From contig JBFWIF010000001.1 in NCBI GenBank assembly GCA_050256135.1, positions 17,647 to 81,646 on the forward strand: 64,000 nt of DNA, in the 5' to 3' direction. The position numbers and the translations under genes are program-made. Below, in pieces: positions 6,747 through 58,863 of the stretch. Within the stretch, counting starts at the first letter, position 1. Every line of letters starts with the position of its first letter. Source of the DNA: Acidaminococcaceae bacterium. GTDB lineage: Bacteria > Bacillota > Negativicutes > Acidaminococcales > Acidaminococcaceae. Under the pieces are notes generated by a model. The model saw nothing but the letters and a program-made list of their open reading frames with translations. It did no database searches and was not told the DNA's origin.

Positions 6747-7577
6747 TTGCGTACATTAGTTAAACGCAAACAAATGGCAGCATTAACCAAATTTTTTGAT
6801 GAAACAAAGATTAAAAAAGAAATTGTCAAAGCAAAACCGTATTTTTTTGAACAGGCAACAAGACAATTTTTTTACAAGGGTTCTCAATTTGATGAACGTG
6901 TAAAATTAATAAAAGAAAACATGGATTTTCTAACAGAAACTTTTTCTGAGGATAGTCTTCGCCATATTTATGTAGATGGCAGTGGTATAGAATTATGGAG
7001 CGAGGAATATCTTGGGAAAAAACTTTCTTTTCAGCTTAAATTTAGCGGTGGGCAACAAAAAGAGGGAACTTTATCAATTATACTGAAATGGGATAAGACT
7101 TATCTTTACCAAATGATGTTCTGGATAGCCAAAGATATGAAGACGGATCAATATGACCTTTTTATAGGGGCTATGCAGGGGCCGAATGTTGATAATGCCA
7201 ATGAAATAATCAAAGTTCTCACAAAACAGTTTTTCGGTTATCGAACCAAAAATTTAATACTTTATGCAACAAGGGCTTTTGCCAGAGCTATTGGCGTAAC
7301 AAGAATTTATGCCGTTACCAATGAAGGATATTATGCCAATAACCATATACGCATAGATAGAAAATTAAAAACTTCTTTCAACGATTTTTGGGCGGAGACA
7401 GGCGGCACACCTTGCGAAGATAAACGTTTTTACGAACTGCCGCTTACGGAATATAGAAAAACATTAGAAGAAGTCAAAACTCACAAACGCAATCTATACC
7501 GGAAACGTTTTGAGGTTTTGGATAGAATTGATCTGGCAATACATAATGCTATTAAGAAATGTTTACGCGCAAAATAA
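6747..7577 (+). CDS. VirK/YbjX (DUF535) family protein
   Basis: Central and C-terminal blocks (LFIGAMQGPN, YRTKNLILYATRAFA..IGV..IYAV, NNH) match the DUF535 pattern as I remember it. The start is uncertain: TTG at 6747 or ATG at 6774. Confidence 0.65.
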   Translation: MRTLVKRKQMAALTKFFDETKIKKEIVKAKPYFFEQATRQFFYKGSQFDERVKLIKENMDFLTETFSEDSLRHIYVDGSGIELWSEEYLGKKLSFQLKFSGGQQKEGTLSIILKWDKTYLYQMMFWIAKDMKTDQYDLFIGAMQGPNVDNANEIIKVLTKQFFGYRTKNLILYATRAFARAIGVTRIYAVTNEGYYANNHIRIDRKLKTSFNDFWAETGGTPCEDKRFYELPLTEYRKTLEEVKTHKRNLYRKRFEVLDRIDLAIHNAIKKCLRAK

Positions 7578-8694: not shown

Positions 8695-9513
8695 ATGAAG
8701 AAAATTACGATAGGTTTGGTTCAGATGGCTTCGCTGTGTGGTGATATTGAATATAACCTAAAAAAAATAGAGGGGTTTGTTCGTCAGGCAGCTGCCAAAC
8801 AAACTGACATCATCTGTTTTCCTGAGCTTTCGCTTACAGGGTATTGTCTGGAAAAAGATTGGACGGCGCAAGAGTCAAAGATCAAAGAAGCAGTTAAAGA
8901 ATTGCTTAATCTTTCCATGCAGCTGAAAATCGTAATAATGGTCGGCATGGTTGAAGTGTCAGACAGCAGCGACGCATACATAAGTCAGCTGATATGTTTG
9001 GAGGACGGAAGTTGTAAAAATTACCGCAAAACTCATCTTGGTCAACGAGAAAAGAAGGTTTTTGCTGCGGGCAACAGACTTCCTGTTTTTAAATTGGAAG
9101 CTGGCTTGAACATTGGCGTGGAGTTATGCTATGACACACATTTCCCTGAGGTTACAGGCAAGCTTTCGCAAATGGGTGCGCAGATAGTATTTGCACCGCA
9201 TGCAGTGCCGCTCGTTTCGGCAGGTAGCCGTGAGGAAATTTGGGGAAAATATATACCAGCGCGTGCTTATGACAATCGAGTTTATTTCGCCTGCTGCAAT
9301 CAGCTGGGCGGCAATGGCAGGGGCAGCGAATTTGCCGGGGGCTGTGTCGTTTACGGTCCGGACGGAAGCGTTATTGCCAAAGATTTTTCCAATCAGGAGG
9401 GGTTACTTACCACTAAACTTTCTTTAACGGGTTTAGAGCGTTATCGAAATCAAGGTAAAGGAAAGATGGGTGCACGGTTTTTCCTGCAGGATAGGAGACC
9501 AGAGTTGTATTAG
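8695..9513 (+). CDS. carbon-nitrogen hydrolase (nitrilase superfamily) protein
   Basis: CFPELSLTGY (catalytic Glu region), the Lys region and the VELCYD catalytic Cys motif. Confidence 0.85.
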   Translation: MKKITIGLVQMASLCGDIEYNLKKIEGFVRQAAAKQTDIICFPELSLTGYCLEKDWTAQESKIKEAVKELLNLSMQLKIVIMVGMVEVSDSSDAYISQLICLEDGSCKNYRKTHLGQREKKVFAAGNRLPVFKLEAGLNIGVELCYDTHFPEVTGKLSQMGAQIVFAPHAVPLVSAGSREEIWGKYIPARAYDNRVYFACCNQLGGNGRGSEFAGGCVVYGPDGSVIAKDFSNQEGLLTTKLSLTGLERYRNQGKGKMGARFFLQDRRPELY

Positions 9514-9552
9514 AAAAAATAGCTGGCTAAAATAAGAAAACGAAATCAGCCA

Positions 9553-9591
9553 AAAGTGCTTTTTCTCATAGTGAGAAAAAGCACTTTTTTT
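9553..9591 (+). terminator. rho-independent terminator
   Basis: GTGCTTTTTCTCA / TGAGAAAAAGCAC hairpin plus a T7 run. Confidence 0.65.
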
Positions 9592-9783
9592 GTGCAGTAT
9601 TCAAAAAAGGTAAAAAACACGCAAAAACGGTAAAATACTAGGAAATATGGAAGGAAGAATTTTTATCGATGTCGAAAGTTGCAAAAAGTATACTACACCT
9701 TCAGACCTGCCCAAAGCTGGGAAAGGGTCTTTTGGATAATTTTAAGGTTTCTATGAGAAAATCTTACCAAACGGTGGTGAATC

Positions 9784-10989
9784 ATGGTCAAGAGAATTTT
9801 TATATGTATAGTTGCAATAACTTTATTTTGTGCTTCCAGTGTTTCGGCAGCGGCAGCTAATCCTTTTGCTGATGTACCGAAAGGCCACTGGGCTTATGCT
9901 GCTTTGGCAAAACTGGAACAAGGCGGTGTTTTGCCGAACGGAAAAGAGTATGACGGCAGCAAAATAATCACGCGCTATGAAATGGCTCAATTGGTTGGTA
10001 CAGCACTAGCCAATAAGGATAAGTACAGCGCAGACATTCAACAACATATTTTACCAAAACTGACGGATGAGTTTGCTGATGAACTGAATAATTTAGGCGT
10101 GCGGATTGCCAAACTGGAAGCTGCCAGTGATAATATCAATCTCAATGGGCAGATACGATGGCATTACGTCGATAACGATCGGAGTGAACATGCCGGCAGT
10201 TATGCGCATCAGCTACGTTCCCGCATTTACATTAACGGCAAAGTTAATAAAACCTGGGACTATCATGCTATGCTGGAAAACAAGCAAGATTTGCGTACGA
10301 ATGCTGAAGAGGGCAAAACTGGTTTTGAACGTGCTTATGTAACCGGTCCGCTAGGCGGTGCGAAAGTTAAGGCTGGCGTTTTCGGCAATCTGATGGCAGA
10401 GGGTAATATTTATGATACAAGTTTTGATGGCATTAAATTTGAATTCGGCGATATTATAAAATACAGTCTTCTCTATGGTGAGGCTGATATTGCGCGCGAC
10501 AATAAGATGTTTGTAGCGGCAGCTTCTTACAAAGATTATGACTATGATGCCGCGGTGGGTTATCATAGGATTAATTACGATGAAGGAAAGCCTTCTGCTA
10601 ATACTATCTGGAGTGGCGGTGCTAATTACGACTTTGGCAATTACTCTTTGGGAGCTATGTATCTGAGGGCGAGTGAGAAAGATGCCAAGGGTGACCGCGA
10701 TGGTTATGTGTTGACGCTGACTCACGGCAGGCTGAAAGAATGGCGTGCCAATACATATGAAATTTATGCCAAATACTACGATCAGTCTGCTACCACCTAT
10801 TTGGCTCATACGATGAACGGCTTGGCAGGTTATATGGACGGTTTTAAAGGTTACAGCGTGGGAGTAAATTATGCAGTGGCGGAAAACATTGTGTTTGGTT
10901 TGGAGTATTACGATCTGAAGGATAAGATAACAGATGAAAAGAACAGAACGATTTGGATGCAGTTTGTTTTTGACTTTAGTACGGATTAA
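9784..10989 (+). CDS. SLH-domain outer-membrane porin (OmpM-like)
   Basis: Signal peptide ending SVSAAAA, an SLH motif (FADVPKGHWAYAALAKL...ITRYEMAQLV), a coiled-coil linker, then alternating aromatic/hydrophilic beta-strand pattern through to the C-terminus. Confidence 0.8.
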   Translation: MVKRIFICIVAITLFCASSVSAAAANPFADVPKGHWAYAALAKLEQGGVLPNGKEYDGSKIITRYEMAQLVGTALANKDKYSADIQQHILPKLTDEFADELNNLGVRIAKLEAASDNINLNGQIRWHYVDNDRSEHAGSYAHQLRSRIYINGKVNKTWDYHAMLENKQDLRTNAEEGKTGFERAYVTGPLGGAKVKAGVFGNLMAEGNIYDTSFDGIKFEFGDIIKYSLLYGEADIARDNKMFVAAASYKDYDYDAAVGYHRINYDEGKPSANTIWSGGANYDFGNYSLGAMYLRASEKDAKGDRDGYVLTLTHGRLKEWRANTYEIYAKYYDQSATTYLAHTMNGLAGYMDGFKGYSVGVNYAVAENIVFGLEYYDLKDKITDEKNRTIWMQFVFDFSTD

Positions 10990-11001
10990 GAGGCGATAAA
11001 T

Positions 11002-12324
11002 GTGGGAATATATGAAAAAATAATTAACAGAGAAGCAAATATAGCAGTTGTTGGACTCGGATATGTGGGACTGCCGATAGCGGTTGCTTTTGCCGATAAG
11101 GCAAACACTATTGGTTTTGATACTAATGCGGAGAAAATTTCTAGTTATAAAAGCGGTATTGATCTGACCAATGAAGTTGGAGATGAAAAAATAAAGGAAA
11201 CGCCTTTGCAATTTACTACGGAAGAAAAAGACTTACAGAATGCTGATTTTATTATTGTCGCGGTACCAACACCGGTCAATGGTGATGAAACACCTGATTT
11301 GAACCCAGTTGTTAGCGCGAGCAGTATTGTCGGCAGAAATCTGACTAAGAATACTATCGTCGTCTTTGAATCGACTGTTTATCCGGGTGTGACAGAAGAC
11401 ATCTGCATACCGATTTTGGAAAAGGAGTCTGGCCTGCAATGCGGCACAGATTTCAAAATTGGCTATTCACCGGAAAGAATCAATCCTGGTGATAAAGTGC
11501 ACCGTTTGGAAAACATCACGAAAATTGTTTCAGGGATGGATGAAGCAACATTGGAAGAAATTGCTGCGGTCTATGAACTGATTATCAAAGCTGGGGTTTA
11601 TAAGGCGGAAAGTATTAAGGTTGCCGAAGCGGCGAAACTAGTGGAAAATTCACAGCGCGATATCAATATTGCTTTTATGAACGAATTCGCGATGGTTTGT
11701 GAATTGATGGGTATCAACACAAAAAGCGTTATCGACGCGATGAATACGAAGTGGAATGCACTAGGCTTTTTTCCTGGGTTGGTAGGCGGACACTGCATAG
11801 GTGTCGATCCCTATTATTTTATCTACAAGGCCAAAATGCTGGGTTATCATTCCCAGATTATTGCAGCCGGCAGAAAAATCAACAACAGTATGGGTAATTT
11901 TGTAGCAGATGCAGTAATCAAAAGTTTGATCCAGGCTGATCAAAATGTCCGCCATGCTAATATCTACGTTTTTGGCATTACTTTTAAAGAAGATTGTGCG
12001 GATATTCGTAATTCCCGGGCTTTTGATGTTTTGAAAAGATTGGCGGAATATGATATTCATCCAAAGGTTGTTGACCACGTTGCTGATAAGCAGGCAGCAA
12101 AAAATGAATTTGGTATTGACCTCGTCAGGATGGAGGAAGTGCAGAATGCGGATTGTCTGATTTTCCTGGTTGCCCATAAACAATTCAAGGAAATGTCTTT
12201 GGCAGAGGTGGATTCTTTGTATAATTTACAACTGCCACGTGAAAAAAGGGTAATTATTGATGTGAAAAGCATTTTTGCGGCAAATGCCTTTAAAAATAAC
12301 GGGTATATCTATTGGAATCTTTAA
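11002..12324 (+). CDS. nucleotide-sugar 6-dehydrogenase, TviB/WbpA type (UDP-GlcNAc 6-dehydrogenase-like)
   Basis: VVGLGYVGLP, ESTVYPGVTED, YSPERINPGDK.HRL, YKAESIKVAEAAKLVENSQRD and PGLVGGHCIGVDPYY closely mirror Salmonella TviB as I recall it. GTG start. Confidence 0.85.
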   Translation: MGIYEKIINREANIAVVGLGYVGLPIAVAFADKANTIGFDTNAEKISSYKSGIDLTNEVGDEKIKETPLQFTTEEKDLQNADFIIVAVPTPVNGDETPDLNPVVSASSIVGRNLTKNTIVVFESTVYPGVTEDICIPILEKESGLQCGTDFKIGYSPERINPGDKVHRLENITKIVSGMDEATLEEIAAVYELIIKAGVYKAESIKVAEAAKLVENSQRDINIAFMNEFAMVCELMGINTKSVIDAMNTKWNALGFFPGLVGGHCIGVDPYYFIYKAKMLGYHSQIIAAGRKINNSMGNFVADAVIKSLIQADQNVRHANIYVFGITFKEDCADIRNSRAFDVLKRLAEYDIHPKVVDHVADKQAAKNEFGIDLVRMEEVQNADCLIFLVAHKQFKEMSLAEVDSLYNLQLPREKRVIIDVKSIFAANAFKNNGYIYWNL

Positions 12325-12342
12325 TTGGGAGGGTTGCGGCGG

Positions 12343-15018
12343 ATGAAAAGTAAAAGAACGCTGATTTACTTGGCTGTGGGTGCTGCAGCATTAGTAATGA
12401 TCATGTATATTTTTGTATCTTTGTTTTCTTCGAGCCCTTTGGGTCAGGGCAGAAATATTAATGCAAATTTATCGTCTTTATATAATGCTGAAGCCGAAAT
12501 CAAAGCAGCAAAAGCAAATTTGCGCAATAAACCTGCCAAAGCCCAGCTCATGACCAGTATGAATTTGGCTTCTAATGGTATTGCTATAACCTTCGACGGT
12601 CTTGCGGATATTGCTACGACCAGACAGATTTTGGACTTATTGCAACGGTATGACATCAAGGCCGCTTTTTTCGTTGAGGGTATGCGCGCAGCTGAGGAGC
12701 CTGAGCTCATTGCGGAGATTATCAAAGCTGGACATAAAGTTGAAAACTATTCATTGTCGGGGCGGAGATTTTTAGAGAAAATGCCGCAGGACGAACTGAT
12801 AAAAGATTTATGCACTGCTCAGAAAATCATTAAGGTGACAAGCAATACTTCACCTCTGTTCTTGAAGACTGAGGAAACTGCTTATACTGATAACTTGCTG
12901 CAGGTTGTCAGGGCCTGTGGTTTGACTGCCGCAGTAAAAACGGACAGGGTGTTAAATGCTAGCAGTTTGGTAAGCTATGACGCAGCAGTTGGTTATGTAA
13001 GAAATATTAAAAAAGGCAGCATCGTTTCTTTCCAACTGGAACGGCCTAAGGGAGAAAAGCCGCCAGCGGCAAAGATAGAAGAGCAGGTACCTGCAAAAGA
13101 TAAGCAGCCGGGTTTGAAAGAACTGAATAAGGAGTCTCTCAAGGACAATGAACAACCGAAAATCGTCAAAACTGTCGAATTGTTTTTTAAAGCATGCAAG
13201 AATGAGCAAGTGCATACGGTATTGCTTGCAGTGCCAAAACAGAAGTTGGCAGCAGCAAATTCCTGGCAGGCGCATTTATGGGCTAACCTTGCTTTGTTAA
13301 AGGATAAGGCTGGCGAGGTTCTCGGCTGCAAAACGGCTTATGCCGCAGCGCCTGCTCAGAAAGACTTGGAAGCTTTACGTGCTCAAAATAAGGGGAAACT
13401 AAGGCAGGAGATAAAAAGCATTCATACTACTGAAAAGGCGTTGAATTACAGCTTTGCAGGTATTTCTAATGAAGCCGCCCTTGATGCCGTATTGAATACG
13501 TTGGATATGCTGCACGGTAAAGCTACTTTTTTTGTCACAGATAAAGATATTAGGAAGTATCCTGGTGCAATCAGCAAAATAATTAATTCGGGTAATGAAA
13601 TCGGCATCGGTATCGGCTTGGATGCGGGCGACAATTTCTACACGGAAGCAGCGGAAATTTTGCGCTGTGATGAATTACTGCGGGCTAAGTTCGGTATTAC
13701 TACCGACATCGTCAAGCAATTATGGGGAGTAGTACCGCAGGAAACGATGGAAGCGGCTTCCGCGACCGGCAAATATCTGGTAGGACAGGTCTATACGATT
13801 GCCAAAAAACAGCATAAGGATTACACTTCCGCACAGGCTATCAGGGAAGAGCTTTTTCCTAAAGGCATTATTTCTTTTGGTATCGGGCAGCAGATTTTCT
13901 TCCGCCTGGACCTGTACTCTGATCCTTTAATGTGCAGTAAGCTGCTAGAAGAATTTCAGAAAACGTTGGTAGATAATATTGCATATGCTACCTTAAATGA
14001 TAATCCAGCAATCAATCCGCAGAATGACTCAAGTTATAGTTTGAAAACTGTAGGAGAAATATTGCATAATGAGCGTTACACCTATGAATATCCTGTGCCG
14101 GAGACAAATGTTCCTGAGCGCTTAAAAAGCGATTTCAGGAAGCTGCATGTTAATAAGGATAACTTTATCGAAATGGTCAATACTCGTTATATAGGAACAG
14201 ATTGGGTCAACGACGTGCATAAGGCACTCGGTTTTTCCAGGCAGGAAATAAAACGTCTGGATACCAGCGGTGTCATCCATACTAACGATAATGTCGTCTT
14301 TTTTACCTTTGATGACTGGGGCGGTGATGCGCCTATTAACAATATTTTGTATGTCTTAAAGAAACACAATGTGCCTGCTACCTTTTTTATCAGGAGCAAT
14401 AAGGTGCAGAATCACCCAAACCTTTTGCGTATGATAGCAGCCAGCGGACATGAAATAGGCTCACATACTGATCAGCATCAACTGATGGCTATGTATGATA
14501 AAAATACCAAAAAATATGTGCCGACTCAAACACGAGAAGAATACATGCAGGATTTAAAGACCTGTTATGATAAATTGGTGAGCATAGTCGGTGATGTCCA
14601 AATTGACGGACACTATTCCTTGACGAGATATTTCCGGCCGCCGGCATTGGCAGTTAGCAAGATGGGGCTGGAATGTGTTTTTGCCAGCGGTTATGAGTAT
14701 ATTGTTTCCGGCTACAGCCCAGGCGATTATCAGGCTAACAGTGCTATGCAGGTCAGACATACGATAGAGGAAGACCTTTATACAGATGATGGCAAAGTTA
14801 ACAAAGGTACCATTTTTGTTCTGCATATGGGCGATAAGAATGGCAAGCTGACGGCAGAGGCTCTTGATTCTTTGCTGACAAAAAACGAACAAAAAGATGA
14901 TGCTGATCCCAGCAAGTTTAAGGCTGGCAGACTATCAGATTATTTGCGTGATGGCTATGACCAGGGCAATCCGAAAAAAAGTTTAAGGCTTGAGACAGAG
15001 AGAAGAGCGGTACCATGA
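12343..15018 (+). CDS. membrane-anchored protein with three NodB (polysaccharide deacetylase) modules
   Basis: N-terminal TM helix. Module 1 has ITFDG..GHKVENYS, module 2 has ATFFVTD..GNEIGIGIG, and module 3 has the canonical FTFDDWG, GHEIGSHTDQH, YFRPP and FVLHMGD. I chose the start at 12343 because GGGAGGG precedes it. Confidence 0.8.
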   Translation: MKSKRTLIYLAVGAAALVMIMYIFVSLFSSSPLGQGRNINANLSSLYNAEAEIKAAKANLRNKPAKAQLMTSMNLASNGIAITFDGLADIATTRQILDLLQRYDIKAAFFVEGMRAAEEPELIAEIIKAGHKVENYSLSGRRFLEKMPQDELIKDLCTAQKIIKVTSNTSPLFLKTEETAYTDNLLQVVRACGLTAAVKTDRVLNASSLVSYDAAVGYVRNIKKGSIVSFQLERPKGEKPPAAKIEEQVPAKDKQPGLKELNKESLKDNEQPKIVKTVELFFKACKNEQVHTVLLAVPKQKLAAANSWQAHLWANLALLKDKAGEVLGCKTAYAAAPAQKDLEALRAQNKGKLRQEIKSIHTTEKALNYSFAGISNEAALDAVLNTLDMLHGKATFFVTDKDIRKYPGAISKIINSGNEIGIGIGLDAGDNFYTEAAEILRCDELLRAKFGITTDIVKQLWGVVPQETMEAASATGKYLVGQVYTIAKKQHKDYTSAQAIREELFPKGIISFGIGQQIFFRLDLYSDPLMCSKLLEEFQKTLVDNIAYATLNDNPAINPQNDSSYSLKTVGEILHNERYTYEYPVPETNVPERLKSDFRKLHVNKDNFIEMVNTRYIGTDWVNDVHKALGFSRQEIKRLDTSGVIHTNDNVVFFTFDDWGGDAPINNILYVLKKHNVPATFFIRSNKVQNHPNLLRMIAASGHEIGSHTDQHQLMAMYDKNTKKYVPTQTREEYMQDLKTCYDKLVSIVGDVQIDGHYSLTRYFRPPALAVSKMGLECVFASGYEYIVSGYSPGDYQANSAMQVRHTIEEDLYTDDGKVNKGTIFVLHMGDKNGKLTAEALDSLLTKNEQKDDADPSKFKAGRLSDYLRDGYDQGNPKKSLRLETERRAVP

Positions 15019-15049
15019 CAACAAAATAGATAACCATGGCAGGTATACT

Positions 15050-16870
15050 ATGAAGAATCTATTCAATAACAAAAAAATAAAAGATGTGTTGCTGGCTATT
15101 AAACCTGACCGTAGGCTGCTGTCCAAAGTGCCAGATGAGGAAGGACTGCGGGTCAACAAGGAAAGGCGTGGTTTTGATTCGTCTAATGGCGCATATGACA
15201 TTAAGACCTTAATGGATCAGGAGCACAGCGGAACGCGCTATCTGATCGATTATGATGTTGCTGTCCAATATTTCAATGCAGACAGAAAGAAAATGTATTG
15301 TCAGGCTGTCGGCAAGGACATTTCATCGACAGGTATGTTGTTGGAAATTGCGGCGGCAGATGCCGAAACTCTCGACCGCGCTAAAGCGATGGAGCTTTCT
15401 TTTGAAATCATTGAAGGGACGATGCCGGAAGGCTACGAAATGTCGGTGAATATAGGTGCGGAGGTCGTCCGCTGGCAGGAAGGTGAAGATGGCAAAATCC
15501 TTTGCGGTGTCCGCTTTAATGAAACTTTGGCGCAGTATGCCGGCAAAAAGAAGGGCAGGTATATTTCTGCAGTTTCTTTTGCGTTACTGCTGATGATTGC
15601 TGCTTTCATCATTTTGATGCGCAGCGAAAGCGTCATCTATTTCAAATTCAACAAAAGCCTTTATCTGTATAGCATCATAGCAGCTGCTTTCTTGCTGACG
15701 AGATATTTGTTTGGTGCTCTTTACAGGACAGTGCCAATTAAGGAAGATTTTACTCCCGGCGTGACTATTATTATTCCTTGTTTCAATGAAGAGGAATGGA
15801 TTAACAGAACGATTTTAAGCTGCATCAATCAATCTTATCCGTCAGAAAAGCTGGAGGTTATCATTGTCGATGACGGTTCAACAGACCAATCAGTAGCTAA
15901 AATCAAGGAAACCATTGACAGCATTGCTGAAACTGTTGGTGAGAAAGTGCGGGAACGGCTGTTTTTTCTGGTGCAGGAGCAGAATGCCGGCAAGCGGGAA
16001 GCGCTGGTAAGGGGTGCCATGGCAGCTAAACATGAACTGGTTGTTTTCGTCGATTCTGACAGTTTCGTTGATCCTTTTGCTATCTATAATCTTGTGCAGC
16101 CGTTCCAGGATGCCAACATGGGCGGGGTATCTGGACGAACTGATGTTGCCAATACCTATACCAATGTTTTGACTAAGATGCAGGCTGTCCGTTATTATAT
16201 TGCTTTTCGCATCATGAAGGCGGCCGAGGGTTATTTTGATGCGGTTACCTGCTTGTCTGGACCGCTTTCCTGCTATCGCAAGGAGCTTGTCTTGCAGCAT
16301 AAGGAGGCTTGGTTAAACCAAAAATTCTTAGGCCAGAAGGCAACCTTCGGTGACGACCGCAGCTTGACGAACTTTATCCTGCGTGAGCATAGGACAGGTT
16401 ATCAGGACACGGCTGTCTGCTCCACGATAGTGCCTAATACTTATGGCATGTTCCTCAAACAGCAGATGCGCTGGAAACGTTCCTGGCTGCGGGAATCACT
16501 GATTGCGGCTAAGTTCATGTGGAAAAAAGAACCTTTTATGGCGCTTTCGTTTTATATGGGACTGTTGGTGCCGGTAGCAGCGCCTATTGTTGTCTTATAC
16601 AATTTGGTCTATATACCGGCAGTTTACAGGGTTTTTCCAACGACTTTCCTGGTCGGCTTGCTGATGATGGCACTGATGATGAGTATGGCACAGCTATTTC
16701 TGCGGAAGAGTTCGACTTGGATTTTTGGCATATGGTTTTGCCTTTATTATGAAGCCGTCTTGCTGTGGCAGATGCCGATTGCCTGGTTTACTTTCTGGAA
16801 GTCAGAATGGGGAACCAGAATGACGCCAGCTGATAGTGCAGCACTAGAAAAGAAGAAAAGTGGGAAATGA
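15050..16870 (+). CDS. PilZ-like domain fused to a class-I hyaluronan-synthase (HasA)/NodC-like processive GT2
   Basis: IIIPCFNEE, VDDGSTD, VDSDSF, CLSGPLSCYRKE, GDDRSLTNF, QQMRWKRSWLRES and C-terminal SEWGTR parallel S. pyogenes HasA motifs. The N-terminal roughly 170 aa carries DISSTG (DxSxxG). The start at 15050 is my choice; the ORF opens at 14990. Confidence 0.85.
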   Translation: MKNLFNNKKIKDVLLAIKPDRRLLSKVPDEEGLRVNKERRGFDSSNGAYDIKTLMDQEHSGTRYLIDYDVAVQYFNADRKKMYCQAVGKDISSTGMLLEIAAADAETLDRAKAMELSFEIIEGTMPEGYEMSVNIGAEVVRWQEGEDGKILCGVRFNETLAQYAGKKKGRYISAVSFALLLMIAAFIILMRSESVIYFKFNKSLYLYSIIAAAFLLTRYLFGALYRTVPIKEDFTPGVTIIIPCFNEEEWINRTILSCINQSYPSEKLEVIIVDDGSTDQSVAKIKETIDSIAETVGEKVRERLFFLVQEQNAGKREALVRGAMAAKHELVVFVDSDSFVDPFAIYNLVQPFQDANMGGVSGRTDVANTYTNVLTKMQAVRYYIAFRIMKAAEGYFDAVTCLSGPLSCYRKELVLQHKEAWLNQKFLGQKATFGDDRSLTNFILREHRTGYQDTAVCSTIVPNTYGMFLKQQMRWKRSWLRESLIAAKFMWKKEPFMALSFYMGLLVPVAAPIVVLYNLVYIPAVYRVFPTTFLVGLLMMALMMSMAQLFLRKSSTWIFGIWFCLYYEAVLLWQMPIAWFTFWKSEWGTRMTPADSAALEKKKSGK

Positions 16871-16875
16871 CGTAG

Positions 16876-18741
16876 ATGATTAGTGCGGATGATAAATATA
16901 CAACAAAAAAGAATAGCAGAAAGCGAAGGCGTGTTATCCTGCAGCTGGTAATACTGGCAGCTATTGTTGCTGTTTTTTATCTTACTTTATTCGCTGTTGG
17001 TAAGTACAAACCTTATGATCCGACTGCAATTAACATGGCGCAGGACAAAGGTTTTATTGCTTTGTCCTATTTCGGTGTTGATCGCGTCGGTGTTCAGCCG
17101 TTGATCAGTGAAGACCGTCTGGCAGAACATTTGGCAGCATTACGCAAACAAGGCTATGTGACGATCACACAAAAGGATATTGTTGATTTTTATAAAGATG
17201 GTAAGCCTTTGCCTGCCAGGGCTTTATTCCTGATGTTTGAAGACGGACGTCGCGACACGGCTATTTTTTCCACGGCTAAATTAGAGAAGTTCAATTATAA
17301 AGCGACAATGGCAACCTACCCGGAAAAATTTGCTCAGAAAGACACTAAGTTTTTGAAACCGCGGGAACTCAGGGGTCTTGTCGATACAACCTTTTGGGAG
17401 TTGGGTACTAATGGTTACCGTCTTTCCTTCATCAATGTTTTTGACCGCTATGATAATTATCTTGGGGAATTAACGCCGCTGGAATATGCGATGATTTCAC
17501 CCTATCTGGGCCGACGGTATAATCATTATCTGATGGATTATATTCGTGATGAGTATGGTGTACCGAAAGAATCCTATGAAATGATGAAAAAGCGGATTGA
17601 TTATGATTACCAGAAACTTCGTGATGACTATCGGGAAGGTCTTGGCAGCGTGCCGCCATTGCATGTCCTGATGCATGCGAACACGGGCAGCTTCGGCAAT
17701 AATGACCGCGTCAGCGCAGTCAATGAAAAATGGATCAAAGAACTTTTCAGCATGAACTTCAACCGCGAAGGCTATGCTCTGAATGACCGTAAAAGCAGCA
17801 TTTATGATTTGACACGTATGCAGCCTCAGGCCTATTGGTATCCAAATCATTTGCTGATGCGTATCAAATATGATATTAATGAATATATTATTTTTAATCA
17901 TGGGGATGAAGCCCGTTATAACCTCTGGGATGTTGAGGAAGGTGCCGCTGAGTTCCAACCGGAAAAGATCATTCTGACTTCGCTGCCGGAAAAACGCGGT
18001 TTGCTGTATTTAAAAAACAGCAAAGCATTTAAAAATCTTAATCTTTCAGTACTACTGACAGGTAATAAGCTCGGTACACAAAAAATCTATCTGCGTGCCG
18101 ATCAGAAACTGGAGCGCTATCTTGCGGTGAATGTCAGCAGTAACATGCTTTTTATCACCGAAAAAACAAGCAGCGGCACTAAGAATCTTCTGAAACTTGA
18201 TCTTGACCGCCATGATGGTAAAGAGAGGCTGTCCATAGCCGAGGATAAGCAAAATGCCGAAGTCAGGGAATTGGAAACTTTTGCCAAATATGCTAATTCG
18301 CCTGCCATGGCCAGACAGTATCTCAAACAAAGCAAGCAAAGGGAATCTGCCGATGCGGCGACGATTGAGCAGGGGGGAAAGGAATACATTCCTAACATCA
18401 GTGTGCACGCAAAAGGGAAACGTTTGCTTAATATTGTCCTAGAAGATAACCAACTTCAAGTTATAGTTGATGGTAAGGAAGCTTTCAACGGTACAATTAC
18501 TGACGCTGCTGCCGGCGGTGTTGCTCTTGAAAGTGCCTGGGGTGGCTATGGCTGGAGTCAAAGAAACCTTGCCGATGATGTTTATGACGGTGTTTTTGAA
18601 AGTCTTGTCATCAAAGCAATGCCTGCCGATGGACAGGAGAAAATATTGTACAGCGATAAATTAAGCGGTTTTGAAGCATTTAAGTATCAAGTAAAAAAAG
18701 CCTGGAATTCGGTTGTCAATTGGTTTATAGTGCATTTATAA
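16876..18741 (+). CDS. single-pass membrane protein with degenerate NodB-like domain and beta-rich C-terminal domain, function unknown
   Basis: TM helix LQLVILAAIVAVFYLTLFAV. LMFEDGRRD replaces TFDDG and FWELGTNGY replaces GHEIGNH. The gene is translationally close-coupled to the synthase, with a 5-nt gap. Confidence 0.5.
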   Translation: MISADDKYTTKKNSRKRRRVILQLVILAAIVAVFYLTLFAVGKYKPYDPTAINMAQDKGFIALSYFGVDRVGVQPLISEDRLAEHLAALRKQGYVTITQKDIVDFYKDGKPLPARALFLMFEDGRRDTAIFSTAKLEKFNYKATMATYPEKFAQKDTKFLKPRELRGLVDTTFWELGTNGYRLSFINVFDRYDNYLGELTPLEYAMISPYLGRRYNHYLMDYIRDEYGVPKESYEMMKKRIDYDYQKLRDDYREGLGSVPPLHVLMHANTGSFGNNDRVSAVNEKWIKELFSMNFNREGYALNDRKSSIYDLTRMQPQAYWYPNHLLMRIKYDINEYIIFNHGDEARYNLWDVEEGAAEFQPEKIILTSLPEKRGLLYLKNSKAFKNLNLSVLLTGNKLGTQKIYLRADQKLERYLAVNVSSNMLFITEKTSSGTKNLLKLDLDRHDGKERLSIAEDKQNAEVRELETFAKYANSPAMARQYLKQSKQRESADAATIEQGGKEYIPNISVHAKGKRLLNIVLEDNQLQVIVDGKEAFNGTITDAAAGGVALESAWGGYGWSQRNLADDVYDGVFESLVIKAMPADGQEKILYSDKLSGFEAFKYQVKKAWNSVVNWFIVHL

Positions 18742-18760
18742 AAATGAGAGGTAACACAGC

Positions 18761-19801
18761 GTGAATAAGATGCTGAGGAATAGTTTGAAAATAATTTTAC
18801 TGTCGTTATTGTTATTTTTGTTCGCCGGCTGCTATGGGGACAGTAAAGCTGATGTCAAGGCGGCTGAACAAACGAAAAACCAGCTTTCTGCCTGGACCGT
18901 TTACTGGGATATGGAAGATGGCAGCAAGGCTTTTAAAAGCGTTGAAAAGCGGGTCGATGAAGTATGTTTCTTTGGTGCCTATTTTAATGAAGATGGTAGT
19001 TTGTTTTTGCCTGAAGAATTGACTTTTGCCAAGCGGGCGGTGAAGAGAAAAAAACAACTGGTCGAGTACCTTACGGTCGTTAACGACAGGATGATTGCTG
19101 ATGGTTGTAAGGAATACAAAAGCACGGATTTTCTCCGGGAGTTGTTGAATAATCCGGAAAGACGCAAGGAACATATCGAGGAAATCATAGACTTGGCACA
19201 AGCAGGACATTTTGATGGTGTGGAAATCGATTATGAAAGAATCTGGCGGGATTGCGAAATTAAGGACTCTTTTATTCCCTTCATCAAGGAACTCTATGCT
19301 GCATCTGCTGCCAAGAACTTGAAACTAAGGGTAGTGCTGGAGCCTGGCGCACCATTTAATGATATTGTGCTGCCGGCTGGACCGAAATATGTCGTGATGT
19401 TTTACAACCTTTTTGGGATGCACAGCGGACCGGGTCCAAAAGCCGATGCCATCTTTATTAAAAAGATCCTGGGTAAAATGGCTGATATGCCTGAACCAAA
19501 GGCAGTAGCCTTTGCTACCGGCGGCTGCCTGTGGAGCAGCGATGGTGAAAAGAGATTTCTTACGGAAAAAGAGGCTAGAGAGCTGCTGACACAATATAAG
19601 GCCGATGCCAAAAGGGATGAGACCAGCAAAGCTGTCAAGTTCAAATATCGCAAAGGAACTAAAGTCTATGAAGTTTGGTATGCCGATGCGGCTACCATTG
19701 ATTACTGGATCAGCTTAGCGGAGGATGCCGGTATTCGTGATATCGCTATCTGGCGTTTAGGAAGCAATGTTACACTGCAAAAAATCAAGCGGCTTAGATA
19801 A
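18761..19801 (+). CDS. GH18-like lipoprotein (chitinase/YaaH-like fold)
   Basis: Lipobox LFAGC. FDGVEIDYE matches the GH18 DGxDxDxE catalytic block. The overall pattern resembles Bacillus YaaH/YdhD-type GH18 proteins. Confidence 0.7.
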   Translation: MNKMLRNSLKIILLSLLLFLFAGCYGDSKADVKAAEQTKNQLSAWTVYWDMEDGSKAFKSVEKRVDEVCFFGAYFNEDGSLFLPEELTFAKRAVKRKKQLVEYLTVVNDRMIADGCKEYKSTDFLRELLNNPERRKEHIEEIIDLAQAGHFDGVEIDYERIWRDCEIKDSFIPFIKELYAASAAKNLKLRVVLEPGAPFNDIVLPAGPKYVVMFYNLFGMHSGPGPKADAIFIKKILGKMADMPEPKAVAFATGGCLWSSDGEKRFLTEKEARELLTQYKADAKRDETSKAVKFKYRKGTKVYEVWYADAATIDYWISLAEDAGIRDIAIWRLGSNVTLQKIKRLR

Positions 19802-19814
19802 AAATCTTAAAAAA

Positions 19815-19849
19815 ATGAGCCAAAAGGGCGTTGCCCCTTTGGCTCATTT
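19815..19849. terminator. bidirectional rho-independent terminator
   Basis: TGAGCCAAAAGGGC / GCCCCTTTGGCTCA hairpin with flanking A-run and T-run, between convergent genes. Confidence 0.65.
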
Positions 19850-19871: not shown

Positions 19872-20423
19872 TTAAAAATTATCAGGGTCGAAGTGCCAGG
19901 CAATGCGCCTCATCAATTTTGCGGCACCTTTGCGGAAGGCTGATGTTTCATCTTTGGCATTACCGTCAGCAAACAGGTGGTTTGCGTAGAGCAGGCTGTT
20001 TTGCTCAACATCATAATATTTAATGTCGGCACTCAGCATAGCACGGTAAGCTGACTTGAAGAAGACCCGGTCATGCTGCAGTTCATCAAGGTTGAAATTC
20101 ATGAAGCAGAGATAGTCGAGGTCTTGCTCTTTAGCAAATTTGAGCAGTATATCATCGGTAAGCTGATTATTATTTTGAATATTATTCATATCAAGAAATG
20201 CTCCGAAGTCCGCTTCCAGTTCTCCAAAGGCTTCATAGTTATATTTATCACCGGCAAAAAGGGAAGCAGTCTTATCCTCAACAATCCAGCTGATTTCATT
20301 GTCACTCAGTAAGTTGCCGTCATCAACGCGAATAATTCCGATTCTTGGACTGGAACTCTGCGCAAAACAGGCAACCGGTAAAATAAAAAGCAAACATAGT
20401 ACAAAAGCGAATATTTTTCTCAT
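19872..20423 (-). CDS. secreted hypothetical protein
   Basis: Signal peptide MRKIFAFVLCLLFILPVACFA. I recognise no family. Confidence 0.55.
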   Translation of the reverse strand: MRKIFAFVLCLLFILPVACFAQSSSPRIGIIRVDDGNLLSDNEISWIVEDKTASLFAGDKYNYEAFGELEADFGAFLDMNNIQNNNQLTDDILLKFAKEQDLDYLCFMNFNLDELQHDRVFFKSAYRAMLSADIKYYDVEQNSLLYANHLFADGNAKDETSAFRKGAAKLMRRIAWHFDPDNF

Positions 20424-44276: not shown

Positions 44277-44481
44277 AAAAGATACCGGCCGTTAGTGCAG
44301 CGGCCGGTATCTTCATCATAAAACCTTTGCGATACATGTTTGTTTGGGGATGGGTAATGTATGTGAAAAGGCTGTCCTTGTTAATAATTATTAGTATATA
44401 TGTTGCAAACATTTTTTGCCAAAATTGGTTATGTATAGTATAATAATAGCCATTAAAATGTTTTGAAAACTTCATATGATG

Positions 44482-44740
44482 AAAACAGGTGACCTTGGTC
44501 TTAATAGATAAGCCGGTGTGAGTCCGGCGCGGTCCCGCCACTGTAATGAGGAGCGAACCCATAATATGCCACTAAGATAGTTCTTGGGAAGGTATGGGTA
44601 AGCGATGATCCAGAGTCAGGAGAACTGCCTGTTTTGCATTCACCGATATACCTACGAGCGATGGGAGGGGTGGCACAAACGTGAGCAAATATCACTTTTG
44701 TATTTTATCTTCCCTGCAATTATTGCAGGGATTTTTTATT
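44482..44740 (+). promoter_or_regulatory. cobalamin (B12) riboswitch with terminator expression platform
   Basis: P1 AAACAGGT / GCCTGTTT, B12-box GGTCCCGCCACTGTAA, conserved GCCACT...GGGAAGG and AGTCAGGAGAACTGCC, then a CCCTGCAAT / ATTGCAGGG hairpin plus a T-run at 44712-44738. Confidence 0.85.
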
Positions 44741-58666: not shown

Positions 58667-58803
58667 AGCGAGGCGCAGATGAAGTAGGGCAGCGGTTACG
58701 AGCGTAACGAAGTGTAGAGAGATAACTTCAAACAGCCGAATCGAGCCATCAACAAAAAAGGTCCTCGAAAAGAGGAACACATAATCATTGGAGCGGATGG
58801 CGA
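58667..58803. repeat. right-hand copy of the repeat units (X + terminator + tRNA 3-prime end)
   Basis: Contiguous X (58667-58763) and Y (58737-58803) units adjoining the intact tRNA. Confidence 0.8.
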
Positions 58804-58863
58804 GATTCGAACTCGTGACCCACGGCTTGGGAAGCCGGTACTCTACCACTGAGCTACATCCGC
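58789..58863 (-). tRNA. tRNA-Gly (anticodon CCC), CCA encoded
   Basis: The reverse complement GCGGATGTAGCTCAGTGGTAGAGTACCGGCTTCCCAAGCCGTGGGTCACGAGTTCGAATCTCGCCATCCGCTCCA folds as a cloverleaf with anticodon loop TTCCCAA. My fold shows C27-U43 and A49-C65 terminal mismatches. Confidence 0.85.

Follow-up and report, generated by a model that had tools for sequence, protein, structure and literature searches.

Six genes at positions 9784–19801 of the window (the whole stretch of DNA that was analysed, 64 kb) probably encode a synthase-dependent exopolysaccharide (EPS) secretion system of a type so far without a name. As far as can be read from the sequence, the operon most likely serves to make, modify and export a surface polysaccharide based on N-acetylglucosamine. 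The system formed by g1–g6 is probably gated by c-di-GMP, which the PilZ-like domain of the synthase, the main regulatory feature of the locus, is predicted to bind. The product is likely a beta-linked, partly de-N-acetylated GlcNAc polymer, which may carry 2-acetamido-uronic acid residues. The features of the locus are as follows:

9549..9595, + strand: hairpin, terminator of the upstream nitrilase-family gene and 5' boundary of the unit
9596..9783, + strand: leader and promoter region, 188 nt
9784..10989, + strand: g1, OmpM-type outer-membrane porin of 401 aa, the proposed outer-membrane exit channel (signal peptide; SLH, aa ~26–80; coiled-coil stalk, aa 83–114; 16-strand beta-barrel, aa 118–398)
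11002..12324, + strand: g2, nucleotide-sugar 6-dehydrogenase of the 2-acetamido-sugar clade
12343..15018, + strand: g3, membrane-anchored extracytoplasmic protein with three NodB (CE4) modules
15050..15553, + strand: N-terminal PilZ-like domain of g4 (aa 1–168) with a conserved Arg-rich arm and a DxSxxG motif
15554..16870, + strand: membrane-embedded HAS-like GT2 synthase part of g4 (aa 169–606)
16876..18741, + strand: g5, N-terminally anchored extracytoplasmic protein of 621 aa (non-canonical CE4-like domain, aa ~55–330; ConA/CBM66-like jelly roll, aa ~340–600; conserved C-terminal amphipathic helix)
18761..19801, + strand: g6, GH18 lipoprotein with the lipobox LFAGC
19813..19849, unstranded: hairpin, bidirectional terminator common to the convergent gene at 19872–20423 and 3' boundary of the unit

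Operon boundaries and the outer-membrane porin

The genes g1–g6 are a real six-gene operon. The coordinates given above are those of the ORF list, which offers two starts each for g3 (12325 or 12343) and g4 (14990 or 15050); with 12343 and 15050 the successive intergenic gaps are 12, 18, 31, 5 and 19 nt, and the public gene call of g4 (P0001, 606 aa, 100% identical) likewise starts at 15050. Upstream of five of the six starts lies a purine-rich stretch resembling a Shine-Dalgarno sequence, though only weakly so at g4 and g5. The upstream hairpin has a folding energy of -22.7 kcal/mol (z -6.0), and a T run comes after it. The downstream one, placed between convergent genes, reaches -24.1 kcal/mol on the + strand (z -5.9) and -26.1 kcal/mol on the - strand (z -7.1), with the better T tail on the latter. 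A simple terminator scanner flagged neither hairpin. ORF list and folding agree with the sequence-only reading, which had placed six closely spaced same-strand genes between two good terminators, and its reading as most likely one operon is supported: the unit behaves as a single conserved functional cluster. Apart from hairpin noise, the leader matched no Rfam family at the gathering threshold or at E<=1, and no c-di-GMP riboswitch was found in its 188 nt. All four non-cytoplasmic products (g1, g3, g5 and g6) carry a signal peptide, a lipobox or an N-terminal anchor.

Profile and structure comparisons identify g1 as a divergent OmpM paralogue tied to the locus in diderm Firmicutes only. A Pfam search of g1 itself gave no SLH match, while the profile of g1 and its homologues matched Veillonella OmpM1 (8bys) at E 2e-73, and the AF2 model (pLDDT 72.8) had V. 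parvula OmpM1 (8bys) as its top Foldseek match (E 1.6e-19). The two are clear homologues with the same arrangement of SLH, coiled-coil stalk and 16-strand barrel (8bys, 8bym); however, g1 is shorter (401 aa versus 428 aa in the 8bys chain) and lies in an EPS operon instead of an Lpt/outer-membrane cluster. OmpM-type porins are general diffusion channels and membrane tethers, abundant and with several paralogues per genome, and we know of no OmpM that exports a polymer. Together with a neighbour-joining tree without support values, in which the g1 group of the window stands apart from the other operon-linked porins, this speaks for an alternative that we consider unlikely: that g1 is an ordinary housekeeping OmpM which merely lies upstream of a five-gene unit, whose polymer would cross the outer membrane by other means or not at all. 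Against it, g1 and g2 are separated by 12 nt without a terminator, and a porin gene adjoins the dehydrogenase gene in each of the 15 Negativicutes loci with sufficient flanking sequence; these represent four orders, and the linkage survives a rearranged g1–g2 order and a shifted position of g3. Moreover, the two close g1 homologues whose context was checked (P0350 and P0300) belong to the housekeeping OmpMs and are not part of an EPS locus: both sit in tandem pairs, one of them beside Lpt genes, and they form with OmpM1 a separate clade outside which g1 falls.

The distribution of the porin follows the envelope type: 15 Negativicutes loci have it and no monoderm locus does, and its linkage to the locus is confined to Negativicutes. 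The porin role proposed earlier, export through an OmpM-like barrel, fits. In the classical diderms, all three full-length Solidesulfovibrio-type loci have instead a 1619-aa TPR protein with a C-terminal beta-barrel signal (...INYTF), which again argues against a housekeeping porin.

The synthase and its PilZ-like domain

Sequence features assign g4 to the membrane-embedded GT2 synthases of the hyaluronan/chitin-synthase lineage, with a PilZ-like domain at its N-terminus. Hydropathy and domain searches resolve aa 169–606 into a pair of TM helices at the N-terminus, a GT-A domain and a TM/gating region at the C-terminus, and the domain matches of the protein are GT2, Chitin_synth_2 and a sub-threshold PilZ. 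The hyaluronan synthase (HAS) motifs quoted in the sequence-only reading (VDSDSF, CLSGPLSCYRKE, GDDRSLTNF, QQMRWKRSWLRES and SEWGTR) were all recovered in g4 and are invariant or nearly so across 53 homologues, with DSDS, GDDR, QQxRW, WGTR and the switch-loop Cys fully invariant; the defining HAS motifs are DxDT-like, GDDR, QxxRW and WGTR (PMC11750622). The best PDB matches are Xenopus HAS1 (147 bits) and the Chlorella virus HAS, CvHAS (121 bits), and identity falls from 37% to B. anthracis HasA through ~31% to NodC to ~25% to PgaC. Alignment places Y382, F386, C401 and S478 of g4 at the acceptor-collar residues Y288, F292, C307 and S385 of XlHAS1. XlHAS1 R287, which adjoins GlcA-2 in the channel, aligns to the invariant R381, a position taken by Glu in NodC and a PgaC-like protein. 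The grouping of the synthase, which had been put forward as a check, places g4 closest to class I HAS and not among the non-processive GT2s.

The Pfam PilZ model scores g4 at 21.0 bits, under its cut-off of 22.5, and matches 12 of 14 family members with a best E of 5e-6. Within this domain S92 and G95 show no variation and the preceding Asp almost none. R21, R22, R34 and R63 do not change between phyla, and members from Bacillota to Solidesulfovibrio retain the Arg-rich arm. The arginine spacing is RxxxxR versus the canonical RxxxR, and a PDB search with the family profile of the domain found no PilZ structure. GGDEF/EAL genes lie within 10 kb of 12 of ~55 related loci, several of them directly adjacent, which is a modest enrichment only; the 64-kb window has none. 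The sequence-only reading had listed PilZ among the HMM searches worth running, but had left it out of both its title and its mechanism.

The conserved core and the accessory enzymes

The comparative set comprised 57 related loci from Negativicutes, Clostridia, Bacilli and Solidesulfovibrio. Their fixed core is g4–g5–g6, whose order is kept in ~47 loci from four classes and at least two phyla; a deacetylase gene is usual. Hence the six-gene neighbourhood proposed earlier is conserved as a cluster, but it is really a three-gene core with accessory modules, and it extends beyond Negativicutes. Judged by these comparisons, the core is an uncharacterised system across Firmicutes, with its own outer-membrane porin in double-membraned Firmicutes, and g5 and g6 appear as the constant partners of g4.

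In the related loci g5 always lies immediately downstream of the synthase gene; it is an obligate partner of g4 whose role is a guess. Its family counts 185 representatives at E<=1e-30. The CE4-like domain is similar to the N-terminal part of PgaB over aa 58–146 and aligns to CE4 by hhalign at E 3e-4; both metal-binding His are replaced, while a conserved residue set of its own is kept; g5 is thus no canonical NodB module. The top Foldseek match of the protein was CBM66 (E 7e-7), with the catalytic region at aa 119–321 modelled poorly (pLDDT below 50). For g6, the Glyco_hydro_18 score of 46 bits exceeds the cut-off of 29.6, in line with the GH18-like lipoprotein recognised before, and the catalytic motif ExD[YF]E (ExDxE) is invariant in 48 sequences. 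A role as cognate polymer hydrolase would fit.

Among the accessory enzymes, Polysacc_deac_1 matched g3 in three stretches behind an N-terminal TM segment. Modules 1 (TFDG/HKVEN) and 2 (SFAG/NEIGIG) are degenerate, and the full catalytic set occurs in module 3 only (TFDD/HEIGSH/RPP/LH; nt ~14257–14964); the motifs therefore indicate one intact CE4 deacetylase module. De-N-acetylation by NodB modules remains a fitting role, with catalytic and metal residues in one of the three g3 modules. The dehydrogenase g2 gave three UDPG_MGDP_dh matches, passed the cut-off of TIGR03026 with 388.6 bits, scored best on the TviB model (429 bits, under the 592-bit cut-off) and reached at most 146 bits on UDP-glucose dehydrogenase models; its top PDB match was Cap5O (185 bits). 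These scores confirm the earlier statement that it is not of the HasB type and support the TviB assignment at clade level only. Probably g2 converts UDP-GlcNAc to UDP-GlcNAcA. However, a dehydrogenase gene is present in 33 of the 57 loci and missing within 10 kb in ~20, about a third; the uronic acid component is therefore optional or supplied from elsewhere, and the GlcNAcA-containing product suggested before is not established.

Put together, g4 would polymerise UDP-GlcNAc and push the chain through its own channel, opened by c-di-GMP binding to the PilZ domain as in BcsA; where g2 is present, the synthase may also take the UDP-GlcNAcA made by it. Anchored beside the synthase, g5 might play a BcsB/PgaB-like part, its CE4-derived pocket and lectin-like domain taking up or processing the chain as it emerges. 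The third NodB module of g3 would strip some N-acetyl groups while the two degenerate ones hold the chain. Cuts made by g6 at GlcNAc residues would serve to release the chain, control its length or clear stalled polymer. Finally, g1, tethered to peptidoglycan by its SLH part, could pass the polymer across the outer membrane.

Relation to known polysaccharide systems

No characterised system of this architecture, nor any name for it, was found in the literature searched, and RefSeq gives the products of the locus generic names only, in line with the earlier remark that the gene combination matches none of the architectures compared there. PNAG loci (pgaABCD, icaADBC) share with it a GlcNAc-polymer synthase, a CE4 deacetylase for the exported chain, a TIM-barrel hydrolase, a 16-strand porin and, in E. 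coli, c-di-GMP control. The N-terminus of g5 resembles the PgaB deacetylase domain, and the Solidesulfovibrio TPR protein weakly matches the PgaA model (39.8 bits). A variant pga/ica-type system making beta-1,6-GlcNAc, with g5 and g6 as a split PgaB, is nevertheless improbable: g4 scores 122 bits on PgaC_IcaA (cut-off 422), is nearer to HAS and NodC than to PgaC and bears the HAS-specific GDDR and WGTR; PgaD/IcaD is missing, the c-di-GMP receptor would be the fused PilZ, g6 is GH18 and not GH153, g5 lacks the metal-binding histidines of PgaB, and the porin is of another type.

Class I HAS (Streptococcus and Bacillus hasABC, Chlorella virus and vertebrate HAS) are the closest sequence relatives of g4, with DxD(T/S), GDDR, QxxRW, the WGTR gating loop, the switch-loop Cys, the acceptor-collar residues and the channel Arg in common. 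Several sources label g4 homologues 'hyaluronan synthase', and a nucleotide-sugar 6-dehydrogenase gene stands alongside the synthase as in hasAB. A true hyaluronan capsule locus of the has type, HasA plus a precursor dehydrogenase, is still very improbable, given that g2 belongs to the acetamido-sugar clade and not to the UDP-Glc type, that the locus has no hasC and that the constant partners, CE4 deacetylases and GH18, have no role in hyaluronan biology. B. anthracis pXO1 HasA aligns to the GT core only, without the ~168-aa N-terminal PilZ-like domain, and has loci hold no counterpart of g5, GH18, CE4 or the outer-membrane porin.

Very improbable as well is a nodBC-like signalling locus whose product would be short chito-oligosaccharides or a diffusible GlcNAc oligomer and no polymer. 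NodC is indeed the top curated NCBIfam model for g4, and a NodB-type deacetylase is encoded alongside, but the 177 bits fall far under the cut-off of 550, and in its C-terminal TM region and WGTR gating loop g4 can be aligned with HAS, which are processive and translocate their product; the deacetylases are extracytoplasmic, versus the cytosolic NodB, NodA is lacking, and a dedicated outer-membrane channel and a hydrolase suit a polymer better. A sporulation or cell-wall remodelling cluster acting on peptidoglycan, with PdaA/PdaB-like deacetylases and a YaaH/YdhD-like GH18, is likewise very improbable: spore deacetylases are the best NCBIfam models for g3 (PdaB, 179 bits) and the spore enzymes YaaH and YdhD the nearest solved structures to g6, but all spore-model scores are below their cut-offs, a polymer synthase is central to the locus, an outer-membrane component is included, and the locus occurs in Acidaminococcaceae, Selenomonas, Dialister and Solidesulfovibrio, which we take to be non-spore-forming.

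The proposed EPS secretion system resembles Bcs (BcsA–BcsB–BcsZ–BcsC) in its PilZ-bearing processive GT2, cognate hydrolase, 16-strand outer-membrane barrel and obligate extracytoplasmic partner that is anchored in the membrane and carries carbohydrate-binding jelly-roll domains. It differs in that PilZ is C-terminal in BcsA and N-terminal in g4, the GT2 homology is distant (26 bits to 4hg6), BcsB is not homologous to g5, the hydrolase is GH8 versus GH18, and a TPR-barrel stands against an OmpM-type porin with SLH. The Gram-positive c-di-GMP EPS loci (Listeria pssA-E, B. subtilis ydaJ-N, clostridial ccsABZ and Gram-positive pel) likewise belong to Firmicutes, are synthase-dependent and pair a c-di-GMP receptor with a cognate hydrolase. 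Their receptor is a degenerate GGDEF or a BcsA-type C-terminal PilZ, their synthases are BcsA- or PelF-like, and their hydrolases are of the GH8, GH5 or GH114-like kind; to our knowledge, none of them has a HAS-like synthase, g5 or GH18. Eukaryotic and viral clusters without PilZ, g5, GH18 or porin are likened here by enzyme set: in chlorovirus and fungal genomes the gene of a chitin synthase related to HAS (CHS8 or CV class) is clustered with those of UNGD and a chitin deacetylase (PMC5122149, PMC7053769), a trio that parallels the HAS-like synthase, putative UDP-GlcNAc 6-dehydrogenase and polysaccharide deacetylase of the present locus.

Layout and surroundings of the six-gene locus

Six open reading frames follow one another on the forward strand between 9784 and 19801. 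They encode, in order, an OmpM-type porin (g1), a nucleotide-sugar 6-dehydrogenase (g2), a protein with three NodB modules (g3), a hyaluronan synthase (HAS)-like GT2 synthase with an N-terminal PilZ-like domain (g4), a partner protein of the synthase (g5) and a GH18 lipoprotein (g6). With the start codons chosen in the sequence-only reading, the intergenic gaps are 12, 18, 31, 5 and 19 nt. A purine-rich Shine-Dalgarno-like stretch precedes five of the six starts, being weak for g4 and g5, and the ATG of g4 at 15050 is also the start in the public gene call P0001, a 606-aa, 100% identical protein from an Acidaminococcaceae MAG. The ORF list and the folding energies thus bore out the earlier description of six close-set same-strand genes between two hairpins, which are the following:

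9549–9595, hairpin at the 5′ boundary, −22.7 kcal/mol, z −6.0, with a T run
19813–19849, hairpin at the 3′ boundary between convergent genes, −24.1 kcal/mol on the forward and −26.1 kcal/mol on the reverse strand

A simple terminator scanner picked up neither of these hairpins. The 188-nt leader yielded no riboswitch in Rfam searches, run at the gathering threshold over the whole window and at E ≤ 1 over 9450–9850. The GC content across the locus (41–45%) is close to that of the window (42%), so there is no compositional break, and horizontal acquisition was rejected on this ground. Long antisense ORFs inside the locus (e.g., 10351–11211, reverse strand) were dismissed as mechanical; those of the related loci merely shadow conserved forward-strand genes.

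Several features of the surroundings were also recorded. A lipoprotein-like ORF of 183 aa (19872–20423, reverse strand), which had no Pfam or NCBIfam match, runs toward g6 from the opposite side, and the bidirectional hairpin is common to the two. A DUF535 protein is encoded 2 kb upstream of the locus (6747–7577, forward strand), and a second DUF535 gene of a related genome (locus L082, 14889–15221) lies just downstream of a housekeeping OmpM pair and an Lpt cluster; DUF535 may be a recurrent envelope-associated neighbor. Elsewhere in the window there are a cobalamin riboswitch aptamer unrelated to the locus (44471–44646, forward strand; 112.9 bits, gathering score 31.5) and a tRNA gene (58792–58863, reverse strand; 63.5 bits).

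A synthase of the HAS lineage with a PilZ-like domain

Judged from its sequence, the 606-aa g4 synthase is a relative of HAS. Its best PDB matches are Xenopus HAS1 (XlHAS1) and the Chlorella virus HAS, and, among annotated plasmid genes, its identity is 37% to B. anthracis HasA, ~31% to NodC and ~25% to PgaC. The motifs which define HAS are the GT2 catalytic motifs DxD(T), GDDR and QxxRW, together with the WGT(R/S)G gating loop (PMC11750622). Every HAS motif quoted for the synthase in the sequence-only reading was found in g4, and its VDSDSF, FGDDR and QQMRWKRS are invariant in 53 homologues. The same is true of WGTR within SEWGTRM (aa 585–591), a segment located after the last interface helix and aligning to the HAS gating loop. 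Residues Y288, F292, C307 and S385 of XlHAS1, which form the acceptor collar and switch loop, align to Y382, F386, C401 and S478 of g4, and the channel arginine R287, which adjoins GlcA-2 in XlHAS1 (PMC11750622), aligns to R381. All five g4 residues are invariant among 14 Negativicutes members (alignment A1), and across the 53 homologues only S478 falls slightly short of invariance. At the R381 position, NodC and a PgaC-like protein have Glu. Hydropathy indicates two membrane helices on the N-terminal side and at least two on the C-terminal side. The synthase remained below the equivalog cut-off of the NodC model TIGR04242 (177.3 vs. 550 bits) and below the cut-off of the PgaC/IcaA model TIGR03937 (122.5 vs. 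422.3 bits).

The first 168 residues of g4 are PilZ-like and, as predicted here, would be the key regulatory feature of the locus, with c-di-GMP gating the synthase. The Pfam PF07238 score of this domain in g4 is 21.0 bits against a gathering score of 22.5; at E ≤ 0.01, PilZ matched 12 of the 14 family members, with a best E of 5e-6, and some g4 homologues have a precomputed PF07238 match. The (D/N)xSxxG motif is present as DISSTG (aa 90–95), whereby neither S92 nor G95 varies, and position 90 is always D or N, in 17 diverse sequences ranging from Bacillota to Solidesulfovibrio. Also invariant are R21, R22, R34 and R63, with an arginine arm of the RxxxxR type (R34...R39R40), as opposed to the canonical RxxxR which PilZ has just ahead of its β-barrel. 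This arm is separated from the barrel by an insert of ~20 aa in Bacillota and directly abuts it in Solidesulfovibrio. The family profile searched against the PDB gave no PilZ structure, its sole match being filamin (E 1.4).

Scanning the 64-kb window for motifs revealed neither GGDEF nor EAL genes. Among the related loci, 12 of ~55 have such genes within 10 kb, and GGDEF or GGDEF-EAL genes directly beside the locus include:

L003, 3042–4004
L034, 2910–6014
L051, 14905–17709
L010, 16018–17787

Histidine kinases and response regulators also recur near the related loci.

Partner protein, modifying enzymes and porin

The g5 protein (621 aa) has one N-terminal TM helix. It is not a canonical NodB protein, which corrects the sequence-only reading: no Pfam family matched, and, although FEDG is present, W174 and R213 stand at the positions of both metal-binding histidines. 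One region is similar to the initial third of the deacetylase domain of PgaB, and over its whole extent this region shows weak homology to CE4 (hhalign E 3e-4). A strongly conserved set of polar residues is particular to g5. The C-terminal half is predicted to be a ConA/CBM66-like jelly roll, to which the Foldseek matches of the AF2 model (built on a 30-sequence alignment) are confined; aa 119–321 of this model have pLDDT <50. The C-terminal helix (aa 598–621, 18667–18741) is amphipathic and too little hydrophobic for a TM segment, and its W610, N615, W616 and F617 are invariant or nearly so in the 30-sequence alignment A2. With this helix, g5 may contact the synthase. In a library clustered at 50% identity, the g5 family numbers 185 representatives at E ≤ 1e-30 and 619 at E ≤ 1e-10.

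The NodB modules of g3, which follow an N-terminal membrane anchor, were confirmed only in part, since a single one of the three keeps its catalytic residues. Module 3 has the full CE4 set (TFDD, HEIGSH, RPP and LH(MG), against the CE4/NodB reference motifs TFDD, H(S/T)xxH, RxPY and LxH); modules 1 and 2 are degenerate, having lost the Asp and His ligands. The g6 lipoprotein belongs to GH18 (Glyco_hydro_18, 46.0 bits vs. a Pfam gathering score of 29.6), with YaaH and YdhD as the nearest structures. Its catalytic motif is DGVEIDYE (reference DxxDxDxE), and ExD[YF]E is invariant in 48 sequences, so that the D-x-E pair is kept and the middle Asp is always Glu.

For g2 (440 aa), the best curated model was TviB NF011729 with 429.3 bits, below the equivalog cut-off of 592 bits. 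The UDP-ManNAc dehydrogenase model gave 223 bits and the UDP-glucose dehydrogenase models at most 146 bits, while the nucleotide-sugar dehydrogenase subfamily TIGR03026 was passed with 388.6 bits (cut-off 189.8). The top PDB matches are Cap5O and other acetamido-sugar dehydrogenases. The simplest substrate would be UDP-GlcNAc because the operon is without an epimerase gene. That g2 is not a UDP-glucose dehydrogenase argues against a supply of UDP-GlcA from the operon. Although its synthase is related to HAS, the locus differs from has in this dehydrogenase type and in the extra partners.

The g1 porin (401 aa, with a signal peptide) is modeled with the OmpM architecture of an SLH domain, a coiled-coil stalk and a 16-strand β-barrel. 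In the AF2 model (pLDDT 72.8), a helical domain of the SLH type and a long helix (aa 83–114) accompany 16 main β-strands; the best Foldseek matches are 8bys, 8bym and 8byt, all of them OmpM1 of Veillonella parvula, and a profile of g1 and its homologues matched OmpM1 at E 2e-73. In a neighbor-joining tree without support values, g1 falls outside the housekeeping OmpM clade of OmpM1, P0350 and P0300. The latter two proteins (~40% identical to g1), the two non-operon relatives whose context was checked, are housekeeping OmpMs: they cluster with OmpM1 and away from the porins linked to the operon, both stand in tandem pairs of SLH porins, and one adjoins an Lpt cluster.

Distribution and proposed function

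Scanning a single genome for each species gave 57 loci that contain a synthase relative, either full-length or truncated, and their gene content was assessed by tblastn with the six products. In the light of these loci, the claim of a six-gene polysaccharide unit holds in outline, but the unit resolves into a three-gene core (g4-g5-g6) with accessory modules. The g4-g5-g6 order is kept in Negativicutes (Sporomusa, Selenomonas, Mitsuokella, Dialister, Acidaminococcus and Phascolarctobacterium), Clostridia (Lachnospiraceae, Clostridium, Desulfosporosinus and Oscillospiraceae), Bacilli (Brevibacillus, Paenibacillus, Cohnella and Fontibacillus) and Solidesulfovibrio, and a short contig of Planctomycetota has g4 and g5. 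Among the full-flank loci, L017 of Lachnospiraceae bacterium ZAX-1 alone departs from the core triad: it has a synthase and a deacetylase, and within 10 kb there is no homologue of g5 or g6. Among the accessory modules, a NodB-type deacetylase occurs in ~50 loci and a dehydrogenase in 33 (all Negativicutes, all Bacilli and some Clostridia), with ~20 loci lacking the latter nearby. The OmpM-type porin is found in 15 loci, all from Negativicutes, and stays with the locus despite a varying g1-g2 order and g3 position.

The window locus has no TPR scaffold, whether as a fusion with the porin or as its separate partner, of the kind seen in synthase-dependent exopolysaccharide (EPS) systems; it encodes no TPR protein, and the g1 barrel is preceded by the SLH domain and the coiled-coil stalk. 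In contrast, all three full-length Solidesulfovibrio-type loci have a 1619-aa TPR protein between the g5 and g6 homologues:

L047, 13727–18586
L046, 12586–17400
L044, 9370–14178

Its C-terminus has an alternating β-strand pattern, ends in ...INYTF and looks like a β-barrel, which corresponds to the PgaA/BcsC/PelB arrangement. Upstream in L047, there is an 811-aa β-helix + CE4 protein.

On this predicted gene content, the locus fits the pattern of synthase-dependent EPS secretion (bcs, pga, pel and alg), encoding a processive inner-membrane synthase, a predicted c-di-GMP receptor, an extracytoplasmic modifying enzyme, a cognate hydrolase and an outer-membrane β-barrel. It would work in a manner like bcs and pga: the processive membrane synthase g4 would carry the second-messenger domain, g5 would be its obligate extracytoplasmic partner, the modifying enzyme and the cognate hydrolase would be further parts, and the outer-membrane barrel would be present only where an outer membrane exists. 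Two other readings were considered. The synthesis of an SLH-binding secondary cell-wall polymer was rejected on the ground that monoderms and Solidesulfovibrio have the core but no SLH protein with it. A catabolic chitin-uptake locus, for which the porin and GH18 would speak, was rejected since a synthase and a nucleotide-sugar dehydrogenase stand at its center.

The synthase lineage of g4 uses UDP-GlcNAc, GH18 catalysis needs the sugar where cleavage takes place to bear a 2-acetamido group, and NodB enzymes remove N-acetyl groups; from these three traits, we infer a GlcNAc-based polymer. There are hints of 2-acetamido-uronic acid residues in the polymer, namely the conserved Arg of the channel, as in HAS, and the frequency of the dehydrogenase, although ~20 loci have no dehydrogenase nearby. 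With more doubt than confidence, we propose a distinct, unnamed EPS class in which a PilZ-gated HAS-like synthase and g5 might produce an acidic, partly de-N-acetylated GlcNAc/GlcNAcA glycan ("amino-hyaluronan"), with a specialized OmpM paralogue possibly serving as the export channel in diderm Firmicutes. A notable parallel exists in chloroviruses and fungi, where a HAS-like chitin synthase, a UDP-GlcNAc 6-dehydrogenase and a deacetylase form a cluster (PMC5122149, PMC7053769). A full-text literature search found no characterized bacterial counterpart.

The carriers of the locus include gut and rumen Negativicutes, Lachnospiraceae, Clostridium, Paenibacillus and Brevibacillus, for whose matrix polysaccharide the full-text search found no description. 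Synthase-dependent polysaccharide systems (cellulose, PNAG, Pel and alginate) underpin biofilm biology and make up a short list, to which the locus would add a widespread member. To our knowledge, no polymer exporter has been described for diderm Firmicutes, and the locus offers a testable candidate route for a polymer across their outer membrane. If the polymer does pass through g1, the outer membrane of Negativicutes would have its first defined polysaccharide exporter, and polymer secretion would have enlisted a protein that is otherwise a general porin and tether, where Proteobacteria use TPR-barrel proteins. A natural experiment is provided by the core itself, which monoderms have without a porin, Negativicutes alongside one of the OmpM type and Solidesulfovibrio alongside a TPR-barrel. 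Moreover, g4 is a tractable bacterial HAS relative with a fused predicted second-messenger switch, which could serve mechanistic work and the production of tailored GlcNAc-based or uronic-acid polymers.

The RefSeq names for a Paenibacillus copy are generic only. In Paenibacillus cellulositrophicus, a copy of the locus (L081, NZ_CP045296.1, 261845–269475) is located on an 897-kb megaplasmid, in the order deacetylase, an unannotated gap at the place of the dehydrogenase, synthase, g5 and GH18, followed by an AraC regulator and a GH172 gene.
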